Of a DNA stretch of 64,000 bases, positions 1,449 to 24,141 are shown piece after piece (position 1 is the stretch's first letter; every line of letters begins with the position of its first letter). The DNA comes from a virus. Its lineage: Duplodnaviria > Caudoviricetes. Position numbers and translations under genes: made by a program. The notes below the pieces were generated by a model. That model made no database searches, was not told the DNA's origin, and saw only the letters and a list, made by a program, of their open reading frames with translations. Location of the stretch: the IMG/VR virus record IMGVR_UViG_3300037515_000879, positions 18,258-82,257 of that record. One strand, given 5' to 3'.

Positions 1449-3686
1449 TTATTCGGTTTTTTTGGCATTTTTATTGGAAATCTCTTGTTGTTTCACCGCA
1501 AGCTCTGCAGCTTTGATGCGTTCTGCCGAACTTGATTTTAGTGCATCGCCATAGCCTTTGCCCTTAACATAAATATTGGCAACATCAATTTCGGTTTCAT
1601 TGCCCTCTCTCGATTTAAGAAGATCCAGTTCTTGTTTTTCGGCCTCTTGTTGCATTAACGCTTTTTGTTGTTCTTGCGCGGCTTTTATGGATTCTTGACG
1701 TATTTTTTCCATGGCATTAAGCATTTTTTGGAATACTTTTTTCTTTTCGGAAGCGGTTTCTTTGTCAAATATATCAATAAGACCCATAATCATTTCCGGA
1801 GTATTGGCATTTCCAAGAGCTAGTTCTGCAGCTCGGTCAATTCTATCTGAAGCTTCTTTATCTTTTTTGGCATCGGAAAGATACATTCCATAATCGGCCA
1901 AAAAAAAGTCGTCAAACAATTTAAGGAATTTTGTTTTCATTTCCCCAAATATGTAATGAATGACCTCTCCTTTTTCATAATCATGTTTTCCCTTTAAAAG
2001 AACTTTTTCCAAAAGAGATTGGACAAATTCATCAAAGGGAGTAAAGATAACTTCTGTTCTGGCAAAGCTTCCCCTTATTGCTTTATCTGTTCCAGTGGCA
2101 GTTTGATATTGATTGACATCACCTTGTCTTTCTGGAGATATACCAACAAATTTATCTGCCAAATTTTCAATAATGGCAAGACCATTGAACAAATCTTGAA
2201 CAACTCCATTTTGTGAAAGATCTAATGAAGTGAATTGGTTGAATGATGAATTCATTCCTTTTTGTTTGGAATTGATAACTATCAATTTATCTTTTTTAAT
2301 ATGATGCATAACCCTATTCAACCCATTTTGAAATGATGACTTTGTAAATTGTTTTGGTGTTTGGGCTGCATCATATACAAGAACACGACTGTCTCCAGCA
2401 GATTTAAGGGCCAACCGAATTTCAAACAAAACTTCTGAAGCCATAGATTGCAATTGATAAAGTTTTGCTGCAACAGATTTTATAAGCGATGTTCCAATGG
2501 TATTGTCGCGAACAATACTAACAACAGGAAGCATACAGGAAAACTGATCATCAACAGAAGAATATCTAGGTTCCATCAATCCATAATCAAGGCAAATATC
2601 AGGACCAAGCATAACAACAAATCTTGGCATTTCGCCATCTATGTACTCAATGCTTTCTTTTTCTTTTTCTTCATAATCAGGATCTAGTTTTTTATAATGA
2701 GTGTTGTTGTATTTGTCTTCACTGATTTTTATTTTTATACGCTTTCTGGATTTCCACATGGCGTTGATAAGTCTTAATCTACCAACTTTATTACTGGTTT
2801 GAAACCATCCATTATATTTTTGGGAGAAATTGAGCTCTCCACTTTCATAAGTGGATGTATCAACAGACCAATTGGCAAAATTTTCAAAAAATTTCTTGAC
2901 CTTTGCTTTATCTTCAGCTTTTAAATTTGGAAATATATTATAGATTTCATTTTCTGTAAGATAATAGTTTTCGAAAAAATATTCATGGTCATCCTGAACA
3001 ATTTTATACGGATCGATGTCATGGTCGCAATCCAATGGATGTACTTTTCTTGATGTCGTAAAACCTTGTGATTTATCAAGAATGACATGTGCTCTGTCTG
3101 AAACACAATAATCGATAAACATTTGTTTCAGTTTTTGTTTTTCTTTTCTGACATCAAGGAAAATATTTATAAGACCATCGGCAACTTCTTCCGCTATGAG
3201 TTTAAAATCGTGCTCTTCAACATTTTCTGGAATTTGTAAATCTGGATTTTCGGTTTGTGGAGCAAAACCAATATTCGATTTGATTTCCTCAACCATTTCT
3301 CTAGCGAATTGTTCAGAAAGAACCTTTATTTTTTGATTGAATTTTTTATTTTTTGAATTTTTATCTATAACATATGCCTTTCTTTTCAATGGACGAGATA
3401 TAAACTCTCCAACAATTTGTTCAATCTTTGTCTGGATAAGCGGATAAACTATATATTCCTGACCCAAAGAAATACCATGAGGACATGTAATGGTTTTTGT
3501 AAGACCAAGTTCTTCTTCGGAAAGTTCTGCATTATAAGCCCTATAAAGCTTCAATATTTCCTTTCTTTGGTCATTGTAACTTGATGTTATTGAAAATGTG
3601 GCATATTCAAGAGCGTGTGCAATGTGCCAATCTTTGTCTTTTTTGTTTTCAGGTATCGTTTGATCAGGTAGGGATAAGAGGCTCAT
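1449..3686 (-). CDS. Portal protein (745 aa)
   Basis: Directly downstream of TerL; size, N-terminal IPE..KDKDW..A..Y pattern and C-terminal coiled coil fit crAss-like portals. Confidence 0.8.
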   Translation of the reverse strand: MSLLSLPDQTIPENKKDKDWHIAHALEYATFSITSSYNDQRKEILKLYRAYNAELSEEELGLTKTITCPHGISLGQEYIVYPLIQTKIEQIVGEFISRPLKRKAYVIDKNSKNKKFNQKIKVLSEQFAREMVEEIKSNIGFAPQTENPDLQIPENVEEHDFKLIAEEVADGLINIFLDVRKEKQKLKQMFIDYCVSDRAHVILDKSQGFTTSRKVHPLDCDHDIDPYKIVQDDHEYFFENYYLTENEIYNIFPNLKAEDKAKVKKFFENFANWSVDTSTYESGELNFSQKYNGWFQTSNKVGRLRLINAMWKSRKRIKIKISEDKYNNTHYKKLDPDYEEKEKESIEYIDGEMPRFVVMLGPDICLDYGLMEPRYSSVDDQFSCMLPVVSIVRDNTIGTSLIKSVAAKLYQLQSMASEVLFEIRLALKSAGDSRVLVYDAAQTPKQFTKSSFQNGLNRVMHHIKKDKLIVINSKQKGMNSSFNQFTSLDLSQNGVVQDLFNGLAIIENLADKFVGISPERQGDVNQYQTATGTDKAIRGSFARTEVIFTPFDEFVQSLLEKVLLKGKHDYEKGEVIHYIFGEMKTKFLKLFDDFFLADYGMYLSDAKKDKEASDRIDRAAELALGNANTPEMIMGLIDIFDKETASEKKKVFQKMLNAMEKIRQESIKAAQEQQKALMQQEAEKQELDLLKSREGNETEIDVANIYVKGKGYGDALKSSSAERIKAAELAVKQQEISNKNAKKTE

Positions 3687-20186: not shown

Positions 20187-20356
20187 AGGTGCGGTGGCAG
20201 GGATAAATTATTTCTGCTAACGTTAAAATATATGATTAGTAGTCGTAAATAAGCGACTAAATATCGAATTAAAACTAAGTTATTAAACACTTAATAGCCT
20301 TTAAAATAAGCACGACACAGGCTATTAATTATATATAGTGTTGTGAAACGTTTTTT

Positions 20357-20644
20357 ATGAGAACTTACAAAAATGAATTAGAAGTAATTGCAAACGATTT
20401 ACTTACTCAAAATGCAGAAGCAAAAGGTAATGAAAACAAGCCGAATTATACTAACAGAGAATTTATGAATGCTGTTATTATTTTCCAAACTGCATTAATG
20501 GATAAAATGTATGATAACCAAGACTATGACAAAATGGATGTTGAAAATCGTTTTAAAATGGCTGAGAGTTGCGGATTAGATTTACGCAAATTAATACACA
20601 CTTACACAGGTTTAGATACTCATAAATTCGAGGACTTTCTGTAA
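20357..20644 (+). CDS. Cassette 1 hypothetical protein (95 aa)
   Basis: Fills the cassette; stop lies inside the terminal repeat. Confidence 0.8.
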   Translation: MRTYKNELEVIANDLLTQNAEAKGNENKPNYTNREFMNAVIIFQTALMDKMYDNQDYDKMDVENRFKMAESCGLDLRKLIHTYTGLDTHKFEDFL

Positions 20645-20764
20645 ATGTTGCACAACGTAAAGTATAAGGTGAGAAGCCACACCTGAAATTTGGCTATTAA
20701 ACACAAACCTTAGATGGCTTTTCACTTTATACAGTGTTACCCATCTTTTAAAAATGGCGGACAA

Positions 20765-21064
20765 ATGAAAGCTAAATATGAACAAATTGATGGAGTTGGT
20801 TATCTCACTTTTAAAGTAACCGAAGAAATGGGATTGATGAAATTGCCTGTAATTACTAAAAGAATAAGGCAAGGAACAAATGCTTGGACTTGGAATGGTG
20901 ATTTGGATAAGCCAACATTAAGACCAAGCGTAAGAACTGGTTATTACAACGGCAAAGAAATGACGGAAATACATTATTGGCTTAATGACGGAATAGCTGA
21001 TTGCTTGGGCGACTGCAAAGACGGAAATGCTGGTAAGAAACTACCTTTATTAGAACTCGAATAG
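20765..21064 (+). CDS. Cassette 2 protein, DUF6527-like
   Basis: WTWNGDLDKPTLRPSV...H..L.DG....LGDC; start at MKAKY. Confidence 0.65.
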   Translation: MKAKYEQIDGVGYLTFKVTEEMGLMKLPVITKRIRQGTNAWTWNGDLDKPTLRPSVRTGYYNGKEMTEIHYWLNDGIADCLGDCKDGNAGKKLPLLELE

Positions 21065-21136
21065 TAGCCATTTTTTATTGTGGGTAACGTTTACGGGTAT
21101 GTTGTCGGTTTTTTACGGAATAAATAAAATATAATT

Positions 21137-21451
21137 ATGAAAACAACAAGTGAAGTATTTAAAGAAGTGCTGATAGAATTAGGTTTTGCAGGATATAAAC
21201 CAAGCCAAATGACTAACAGCGATTATTGGTTATGCACTACAACTGCTATGGAACGGTATGCTAAATTAGTAAAAAACTGCAATATACCCGATGTTAGCAA
21301 ATCGTTGCCGATTAAGAAATACGAAATTGATTTTGACGGCAATGTATTGGCAGGGATAGAAATATCTGAAAACACACCGAAAGTATTTGGGGCAATGAAT
21401 GGTTACGGCAATGGTATTAGTATCGAAAATATCAAAATTACCGAGAAGTAA
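21137..21451 (+). CDS. Fusion ORF spanning the attC-like site 3 loop and cassette 3
   Basis: ATG lies in the hairpin loop and the frame reads through GTT (NIPD-V-SKSL). Confidence 0.7.
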   Translation: MKTTSEVFKEVLIELGFAGYKPSQMTNSDYWLCTTTAMERYAKLVKNCNIPDVSKSLPIKKYEIDFDGNVLAGIEISENTPKVFGAMNGYGNGISIENIKITEK

Positions 21452-21515
21452 GGCAATGTTTGGTAACAAGTGGATATATATACCATTACACTATATTAAC
21501 AAATAAATTGAAATT

Positions 21516-22082: not shown

Positions 22083-22321
22083 ATGGAATCAAAAATCGAT
22101 TTAAAAAAAAGTATTGAAAATTATCATTCTGATAGTTTTTATTTGATAAGTCCGGATGGATTTTCAATAGCTCATGAAAAACAAAACAAAGAAAATACAT
22201 AACCATGAATCTTAATGTAATAATACCTGAAAAATGGAACCCTGAATGCAAAAAATCTTTTAATAAATGGATTAACAGGGTACATACCGAGGTTAAAAAA
22301 AAGAAAATTAAAAAATCATGA
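22083..22321 (+). CDS. Two tiny ORFs (22083-22202, 39 aa; 22205-22321, 38 aa)
   Basis: The second ends in an ATGA overlap with radC. Confidence 0.45.
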
Positions 22322-22782
22322 TTGAATATAAAACCGATTTACCACAATTTCATTTGGTAAAAGAAAAATCTGATTTTAAACGTGTAAAAATAACATGTTC
22401 AAGAGATGCTGCAGAATATGCCCATAATTTTTACGGGTTTGATATAGAATTATTTGAAAGCTTTTTTATCATGCTTTTAAACAATTCAAACAATACCATT
22501 GGTTATGTAAAAATATCTCAAGGTGGTATTGTTGGAACTATCGTTGATGTTAGGATTGTTGCAAAATATGCTGTGGAATCTTTGTCAACTGGAATTATTT
22601 TGGTACACAATCATCCAAGTGGAAATTTAAAACCAAGCCAACCAGATATTGACCTTACCAAAAAAATAAAAGAAGGTTTAAAAATACTGGATGTAACTGT
22701 TTTGGATCATATAATAATAATTCCAATTGAAAAAAACGAAAATATAAAATATACCAGTCTTTGTGATGATGGATTAATGTAA
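22318..22782 (+). CDS. radC: RadC-like JAB domain protein
   Basis: ILVHNHPSGNLKPSQPDIDLT...VLDHIII. Confidence 0.93.
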   Translation: MIEYKTDLPQFHLVKEKSDFKRVKITCSRDAAEYAHNFYGFDIELFESFFIMLLNNSNNTIGYVKISQGGIVGTIVDVRIVAKYAVESLSTGIILVHNHPSGNLKPSQPDIDLTKKIKEGLKILDVTVLDHIIIIPIEKNENIKYTSLCDDGLM

Positions 22783-23051: not shown

Positions 23052-23260
23052 AAAAAACATTTAATTATGTTGAAATAACCCTTGGTATCGTAGAGGCTGA
23101 AGATCTTGAAGATGCTATGGCTGTTGTTGAACATGGGTTTGGACCCAATATTGGACACACTACATATGAAGTGTTTAATCCTGATGATGATCCAAAATTT
23201 TGGGGAAACCTAGAGATTGATACTGTAAAGGAACTTAAATCCAAAATCGAAAAATTATGA
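23048..23260 (+). CDS. Hypothetical protein (70 aa)
   Basis: ATGA overlaps at both ends. Confidence 0.7.
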   Translation: MKKTFNYVEITLGIVEAEDLEDAMAVVEHGFGPNIGHTTYEVFNPDDDPKFWGNLEIDTVKELKSKIEKL

Positions 23261-24141
23261 GTGTTTATGAAATAATAACTGACGAAATAATTAAAAGACT
23301 TGAATCTGGTGTTGTTCCTTGGCAAAAGCCTGTAAGAGGAATGATATTGCCACCAATGAATTTCAAATCAAAAAAACGTTATCGTGGTGTCAATTGCCTT
23401 TTGTTGTCAAATAAAGAATCTATGAGCCCTTATTGGCTTACATATAACCAAGCCAAGGAACTTGATGGTGAAATTACAAAAGGAAGTAAGGGAACCCGTA
23501 TAGTTTTTTCGAAATTGATTGAAAAAGAAAAAAATAATGAAATTGTTAAGGTTCCGATATTTAGATATTCATACGTTTTTAATCTTAATCAAATTAAAAA
23601 CATAGAATGTCCATATAAAAAAGAGTTGGACAGTTTTGGTGATTTTGAATATATTGAAAATTGTCAAAATTTGTTATCAAGATTGGATGAAGAGAAAAAA
23701 ATTCCTAAAATTGAGGAAGTTTATGACAAAAGAATTGCTTGTTATAATGTCAGCAAGGATATTATTTTTACTATTCCTAAAAAACATTATGTTACTTCCG
23801 AAAAATATTATTCGGTAATGTTTCATGAGATTATTCATTCAACAGGACATCTTTCAAGATTAAATAGAATAACCTTGACAGAAAATAAAGACGAAAATTA
23901 TGCCAAAGAAGAATTGGTGGCAGAAATAGGCGCTTCTTTTTTGTGCGGTGTTACCGGTATTATAACTGATACTATTGAAAATAGTTCTGCATATATTGAT
24001 AATTGGTTGAAAAGAATCAGGAATGATAAAACTTTAGTTATAACAGCAGCCAGTAAAGCACAGGAAGCCGTTGATTGGCTTAATGTTTATGATGATTCTA
24101 TTGATAGTGAAATATTAATACAAGGTGAAAGAAATGGATAA
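23257..24141 (+). CDS. ardC: Antirestriction protein ArdC (ssDNA-binding plus zincin-like domain)
   Basis: GVVPWQKP, YRGVN, WLTYNQA, FHEIIHSTGH, YAKEELVAEIGA. Confidence 0.93.
   Translation: MSVYEIITDEIIKRLESGVVPWQKPVRGMILPPMNFKSKKRYRGVNCLLLSNKESMSPYWLTYNQAKELDGEITKGSKGTRIVFSKLIEKEKNNEIVKVPIFRYSYVFNLNQIKNIECPYKKELDSFGDFEYIENCQNLLSRLDEEKKIPKIEEVYDKRIACYNVSKDIIFTIPKKHYVTSEKYYSVMFHEIIHSTGHLSRLNRITLTENKDENYAKEELVAEIGASFLCGVTGIITDTIENSSAYIDNWLKRIRNDKTLVITAASKAQEAVDWLNVYDDSIDSEILIQGERNG

Follow-up and report, generated by a model that had tools for sequence, protein, structure and literature searches.

Three hairpins, each with AAC at one foot and GTT at the other, lie among three small genes between positions 20213 and 21469 of the window, by which we mean the whole 64,000-nucleotide stretch of phage DNA that was analysed. 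An earlier note, made from the sequence, had proposed that these cassettes share one reading frame across GTT, so that recombination there would place leaders in front of new cassettes, by fusion or by ATGA coupling. The locus raises the question of where such cassettes are exchanged and whether the exchange can create new proteins. The best explanation, and one that we consider likely as a whole, is that the three cassettes of 20213-21469 form an array belonging to an integron-like system that is frequent among Bacteroidota and the phages that infect them, and in which the AAC foot is the usual exchange point, GTT is a second one, and a recombinase acts on folded strands.

Layout of the array and its hairpin sites

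The source record (82,257 bp) is AT-rich and crAss-like, with a CheckV completeness of 100%. When the sequence was re-read, all of the coordinates and frames given in the earlier note proved correct. The three sites are built on a common plan, consisting of an AAC box, 5 to 6 unpaired nucleotides, an imperfect stem of 17 to 20 nt, a loop, 2 to 3 further nucleotides, and a GTT box; the loops are 35, 75 or 157 nt long across the three window sites. The features are as follows.

20213..20348, plus strand: site 1, with AAC box 20213-20221, 5' arm 20228-20244, 3' arm 20320-20336 and GTT box 20340-20348
20357..20644, plus strand: cassette-1 gene, 95 aa, no Pfam family, starting 17 nt past GTT
20648..20744, plus strand: site 2, with AAC box 20648-20656, arms 20662-20679 and 20715-20732, and GTT box 20736-20744
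20765..21064, plus strand: cassette-2 gene, DUF6527 (PF20137, E = 5e-8), starting 29 nt past GTT
21080..21304, plus strand: site 3, with AAC box 21080-21088, 5' arm 21094-21113, a 157-nt loop, 3' arm 21271-21290 and GTT box 21293-21304
21137..21451, plus strand: ORF of the site-3 gene, with its ATG in the 157-nt loop of site 3 and its stop at 21449-51
21137..21292, plus strand: head of the site-3 protein (residues 1-52), encoded by the loop and 3' arm of site 3; the same head occurs on other bodies
21293..21451, plus strand: body of the site-3 protein (residues 53-104), without an ATG before residue 87 and predicted to be beta-rich
21461..21469, plus strand: terminal AAC box of the third cassette, TTTGGTAAC, complementary to the GTT box with one mismatch

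Judged against shuffled arms, the stem scores are 16 for site 1 (P = 1.5e-4), 22 for site 2 (P < 5e-5), and 18 for site 3 (P = 1e-4). The 5' arm of site 3 pairs at a single GTT position, 21293, out of the 1,420 that the window contains, and this, together with its P value, shows that the long stem around the ORF start is real. The AAC box of site 2 (20648-20656) is the complement of the start of cassette 1, and that of site 3 (21080-21088) is the complement of the start of cassette 2 over 8 nt. Altogether, the GTT and AAC boxes of the window are complementary over 6, 8 and 9 nt, the 9-nt pairing including one mismatch. Because no hairpin follows the terminal AAC box, the array ends at 21461-21469. 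A cyclic arrangement, in which the GTT box of site 3 would pair with the AAC box of site 1, was rejected, GCTAAC being merely the commonest core and TTTGGTAAC at 21461-69 the true partner.

At the nucleotide level, the cassette-1 gene has 78% identity to gp015 of the unrelated 38-kb siphovirus lillamy9-1, a Flavobacterium phage. In that phage, sites of this type, with boxes complementary over 10 nt, lie on either side of the gene, which starts at an offset of 19 nt from GTT, compared with 17 nt in the window. In lillamy9-3 and lillamy9-7 (MN812214 and MN812218), the homologue of this gene lies 3.6 kb closer to the record start than in their siblings, a shift that may come either from where those records begin or from some extensive alteration of the cassette region. 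The cassette-2 gene has an alternative ATG at 20714, within the 3' arm of site 2, and the 5' arm of that site is similar to a site in L005. L005 also carries, at 3001-3076, a decayed cassette remnant that retains only the last 18 codons of the body, from an internal Met, followed by an intact terminal AAC box and a 50-nt hairpin site. In sequencing runs X6 and X8, contig coverage has gaps at cassettes 1 and 2 that no contig bridges, and none of the listed sequencing runs holding window DNA is an RNA run. Just downstream of the array, the window encodes a RadC-like JAB protein (22318-22782; E = 1e-33) and an anti-restriction-type protein with ArdC-N and zincin metallopeptidase domains (23257-24141).

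The site family and the exchange of whole cassettes

Our detector found 189 sites in the fetched DNA, compared with 10 in block-shuffled DNA, and in 96 of the 189 the GTT and AAC boxes are complementary over at least 9 nt (mode exactly 10 nt), an extent reached by no site in shuffled DNA. Since the 9 to 10 nt after GTT are the reverse complement of the 9 to 10 nt ahead of the next AAC, a circularised cassette would rebuild a complete site, and this box complementarity is the signature of integron cassettes. A search with one arm motif alone matched 13 contigs in IMG/VR and, among GTDB genomes, at least 120 stretches, nearly all of them from Bacteroidota. Hairpin sites are absent from the distant IMG/VR relatives L002-L004 and L006-L008, and an Rfam search of the hairpins returned only sub-threshold miRNA and snoRNA noise. 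Clusters of attC sites that lack an integrase are termed CALINs. Phage CALINs have been published (Qi et al. 2023, PMC9892861), and integrons have been reported in Bacteroidota (PMC8618304).

Closely related phages reveal where whole cassettes are cut. Comparison of sniff9-1 and morran9-1 with lillamy9-1, to which they are 99.5-100% identical, showed insertions with AAC|G at both ends, the inserted unit in each case consisting of a hairpin with its gene or genes; in the morran9-1 unit, the ATG lies inside the hairpin loop. L014 likewise differs from L009 by a hairpin and gene bounded by AAC|G. The main crossover is thus the AAC foot upstream of the hairpin, and these indels show that the hairpin and its gene, leader and body included, normally move as one cassette. 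The proposal in the earlier note that a leader could translate any cassette placed behind it finds no support in this pattern, in which leader and body travel together, and exchange at GTT is probably a second, rarer event. When L014 2270-2280 is compared with L009 384-546, the head-body ORF of L009 type proves to be internally deleted in L014, leaving a short truncated frame, and just downstream of it L014 has an extra unit of hairpin and gene that encodes a membrane-anchored protein.

The two strands of the sites are not equivalent. Stems on the AACG strand contain 104 G.T compared with 13 A.C pairs in viral sites and 153 compared with 18 in bacterial sites, although the stem score that was used rewards G.T and may thereby inflate the bias, and the AACG strand folds better than its complement by 2.1 to 2.3 kcal/mol. 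In attC sites, IntI cleaves 5'-AAC-3' of the strand with these properties (PMC5027507). The spacer departs from the attC pattern for the cleaved strand, the 5' arm having the longer unpaired stretch (4.7 compared with 1.7 nt). Because the G.T bias tracks AACG and not the transcribed strand, it points to a constraint that acts on the folding of the DNA and not on RNA. An RNA-level role of the hairpins as the main constraint was rejected, the G.T-rich strand being antisense to the genes in bacterial arrays.

Gene orientation separates the phage from the bacterial cassettes. Of 28 cases in viral contigs, 25 have the gene on the AACG strand, whereas 55 of 62 in bacterial genomes have it on the other strand, so that phage cassettes are the inverse of the canonical arrangement seen in bacteria. 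An integron ORF is promoterless, lies upstream of attC, and is carried opposite the recombined strand; in phage cassettes, by contrast, the gene is on the folding strand and the hairpin comes first. Since the hairpin precedes the gene, phage genes are able to begin inside it, and for about one third of phage cassette genes the start does lie in the loop, with translation then passing through the 3' arm and GTT box. Phages seem to hold a separate, inverted pool of cassettes.

No tyrosine recombinase (PF00589) is encoded in the complete 82-kb record (G000), and in none of the five array-bearing Bacteroidota genomes does any protein reach the TIGR02249 cut-off for IntI (265 bits). The array-linked bacterial enzyme scores 195-198 bits against this model, with model positions 175-237 missing, and its best NCBIfam match is NF040815, at 209-219 bits, just below the cut-off of 220; it is XerA/IntI-like. 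The best Xer/IntI-like gene, encoding 398-404 aa, lies 1-7 kb from the array in three of the five bacterial genomes. These are Bacteroidales MAG chromosomes (L034 and L153, L112 and L154, and L142 and L155), with arrays of 4-6 sites, and the recombinase genes of L153, L154 and L155 are co-directional with the cassette genes and encode an N-terminal extension of about 130 aa, without the insertion specific to IntI. In the proposed mechanism, 5'-AAC-3' on folded single strands would be cut by a tyrosine recombinase of Xer/IntI type that comes from the host or from another phage; action on the better-folding strand would give the AAC-foot events, and action on the complementary, less favoured strand the rarer events at GTT.

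If replication switched from one co-infecting genome to another at the feet of hairpins where it stalls, AAC and GTT junctions would likewise arise, with no need for a site-specific enzyme. Breakpoints are indeed found at both feet, and the phage itself has no recombinase. Such copy-choice does not account, however, for the cassette-specific 10-nt box complementarity that is kept in 96 sites, for a G.T bias that stays with AACG even in bacteria, whose cassette genes run antisense to it, or for the presence of a Xer/IntI-like recombinase beside the arrays in three of five bacterial genomes, and we regard it as very unlikely.

Among known systems, the arrays stand nearest to integrons and CALINs, with which they share hairpin sites with AAC/GTT cores, a cassette start complementary to the cassette's own distal box, arrays of small genes, crossover at 5'-AAC-3' of the better-folding, G.T-rich strand, and, in bacteria, an adjoining Xer/IntI-type recombinase. 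They are unlike them in that IntI is absent, both from the phage and from the surroundings of the arrays in five bacterial genomes, in that phage genes start in the loop and are translated through the arm, and in that a second exchange point lies inside the coding sequence. The pdif/Xer modules of Acinetobacter plasmids are similar in having inverted Xer-type half sites and in relying on host Xer, with no dedicated integrase; they differ in that pdif sites are 28-bp duplexes that form no hairpin and are untranslated.

Repeated re-pairing of heads and bodies at GTT

In the third cassette, the frame entered at GTT is open to the stop at 21449-51, and the ATG at 21137 in the loop of site 3 opens the same frame 52 aa before the Val, as the earlier note had described. 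GTT 21293-95 is codon 53, with 156 nt (52 codons) upstream of it, and the GTT box of site 3 is translated as Val-Ser-Lys-Ser. The fusion proposed in the earlier note is supported, in that an N-terminal segment with its own start is read through GTT into a body in which no ATG occurs before residue 87. An AlphaFold model of the protein has helices at residues 4-14 and 27-46 and strands from residue 62, with pLDDT values of 92-96 in the head and the lowest values, 61-76, at residues 41-60. The model suggests that the translated 3' arm and GTT box (residues 45-56) form an unstructured inter-domain linker, given that the predicted helices end at 46, the predicted strands begin at 62, and confidence is low over 41-60. 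A Foldseek search of the model against PDB and BFVD found nothing at E <= 0.001, a tblastn search of 50,697 phage records with ORF 21137-21451 found no match, and a scan of GTDB genomes with its protein found no relative.

The 59 relatives of ORF 21137-21451 that we obtained almost all match one half of it. The alternative considered in the earlier note, that 21137-21451 is always one intact conserved gene, does not hold, as only P0002 and P0018 are full-length. Identity to the body starts exactly at V53 in nine proteins, and a second body allele starts right after Val-Ser in ten more. The body is 93-100% identical behind many unrelated heads, about 27 besides its own, and at least eight further C-termini carry the head, with Val-Ser again forming the joint in several of them; the same head on different C-termini was what the earlier note had anticipated. 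Clustering of 39 relatives gave 28 head families and 7 body families, with the junction at Val-Ser in 36 of the 39, and the four four-gamete quartets among these proteins exclude simple divergence. Junction DNA covers three head contexts (the window, L009 and L014, and a contig from run X10), the other 36 junctions being protein sequences.

At the nucleotide level, homology between the window and L009 (92% identity) is confined to 21285-21467, a stretch that runs from GTT to AAC. L009 forms a separate hairpin, whose loop encodes another head in an identical phase and whose arms upstream of GTT are unrelated to those of the window. A soil-metagenome contig from another study (run X10) carries 21291-21466 without a single change, preceded by an arm and head of the L009 type and followed by different DNA. 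Reassortment of this kind also occurs in another protein of two modules, unrelated to the first (L023 6205-6516, minus strand), in this case at Val-Ser-Asn-Ser. Re-pairing of heads and bodies at GTT has thus happened repeatedly, and the system has two exchange points. Another soil contig from run X10 matches the window to codon 6 of the head (21154) and is then unlike it over 173 nt, a breakpoint that does not coincide with the foot of any site.

Ordinary phage mosaicism, in which heads and bodies would be re-paired by homologous or microhomology recombination in conserved linker DNA while the hairpin stood idle at GTT, deserves consideration here. The 3' arms and GTT boxes fall into conserved sequence types and might supply microhomology, and the head domain is also shuffled in hairpin-free architectures (L007 and L008), so that some of the shuffling is ordinary. 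Mosaicism does not readily explain, on the other hand, why identity begins at the same codon in two unrelated families or why the stretch of DNA in common has its ends precisely at GTT and AAC, and the unrelated arms upstream of GTT in the window and L009 leave almost no homology for recombination. The maintained box complementarity, the strand bias, and the exact breakpoints make microhomology and copy-choice alike less likely, and we consider mosaicism an unlikely source of the junctions at GTT. In L006 (2960-3003 and 3260-3290), a hairpin-free relative, two adjacent genes end in the same tail of about 30 nt and share an internal segment; this may be the kind of repeat found at boundaries in classical mosaics.

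Frame statistics were compiled for 114 non-identical viral sites in 35 records, a crossing ORF being one that starts at least 30 nt upstream of GTT. GTT is read in phase 0, as Val, by 27 of the 36 crossing ORFs, in phase 2 by 7, and in phase 1 by 2, and the Val-frame enrichment envisaged in the earlier note therefore holds for ORFs that cross the core. At GTTAG and GTTAA cores, where phase 1 is closed by a stop, phase 0 leads by 15 to 4 (P = 0.0096), and at other cores it accounts for 12 of 17 ORFs (P = 0.0019). Because kinship among the sites weakens these statistics, a conservative family-level count was also made, in which phase 0 is the sole phase for 10 of 13 families (P = 0.046 at p = 1/2). 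Since most crossing genes keep GTT in phase 0, exchanges at GTT stay in frame. Translated in this phase, the GTT-N6-AGT box gives Val-x-x-Ser. Unrelated loop-encoded heads also end alike, in Asn-Pro-x-Leu-x-Ile-x-x before the Val, which is the phase-0 translation of the conserved 3' arm.

Integron sites are usually viewed as intergenic and as moving whole genes. Here, the site is partly translated and the second exchange point is in frame, so recombination makes new two-domain proteins and not only new gene orders. The closest published parallel to this in-frame use is an engineered attC linker (Nivina et al. 2020, PMC7439510), in which a recombination site in coding DNA likewise doubles as a flexible inter-domain linker and allows in-frame domain exchange. 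That design is engineered, uses IntI1, and translates the whole site, whereas the phage arrangement is natural, only the 3' arm and GTT box are translated as linker, and the head is encoded in the loop. We found no publication on natural in-frame exchange of heads and bodies at such sites, which is the natural counterpart of the engineered use of attC sites as peptide linkers and offers a specific explanation of how small phage proteins could have become so highly modular. An analogy may also be drawn with exon shuffling at phase-compatible introns, in which modules similarly meet at a fixed codon phase; the phage exchange differs in taking place at the DNA level only, with no splicing. A broader reading, which we offer as a possibility and hold tentatively, is that Bacteroidota phages practise natural, recombinase-driven domain shuffling, in which the hairpin sites serve as DNA-level exon borders and phase-0 Val has been selected so that any head in a loop can join any start-less body. 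If this were true, the phages would have a combinatorial supply of small proteins, plausibly for host takeover or for the arms race with antiviral defence.

Gene starts beyond GTT and ATGA coupling

Cassettes 1 and 2 had suggested coupling to the earlier note. In cassette 1, GTT 20340-42 opens the frame GTT GTG AAA CGT TTT TTA TGA, whose TGA (20358-60) overlaps the ATG at 20357, and in cassette 2 the ten codons from GTT 20736-38 lead to a TGA (20766-68) that overlaps the ATG at 20765; both overlaps are present as described. In its full form, the model of the earlier note makes leader-bearing sites expression devices for any cassette behind them, by fusion or by ATGA termination-reinitiation. 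The ATGA geometry at both window cassettes favours it, and across all cassettes the overlap occurs in 6 of 60 (3.3 expected), with another 6 open in frame; without the two discovery cases, the overlap count is 4/8 compared with 2.7 expected. The 58 ORFs that start past GTT are nevertheless distributed uniformly over the three phases (15/25/18), and the stretch from GTT to ATG contains a stop or is in the wrong frame in 80% of cassettes. Moreover, the homologous cassette of lillamy9-1 has a different offset (19 compared with 17 nt), the loops of sites 1 and 2 hold no ORF, and no ORF enters cassettes from these two sites. ATGA coupling as a rule therefore has no support beyond the window, given the phases and the 6/60 overlaps, and the overlaps at cassettes 1 and 2 look incidental. 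We give the full model hardly any credence. The earlier note had allowed that its three junctions might be due to chance; the crossing at site 3 turns out to be part of a significant Val-frame trend, whereas the two ATGA overlaps belong to a class that is not enriched.

Many cassettes have a similar stretch between the core and the gene. In the window (20340-20359) and at sites in L016 and G006, GTT is followed by N6, CG, a run of T, and an ATG 17-20 nt past the core, and this leader may be a conserved translation-initiation element or a point of contact for the recombinase.
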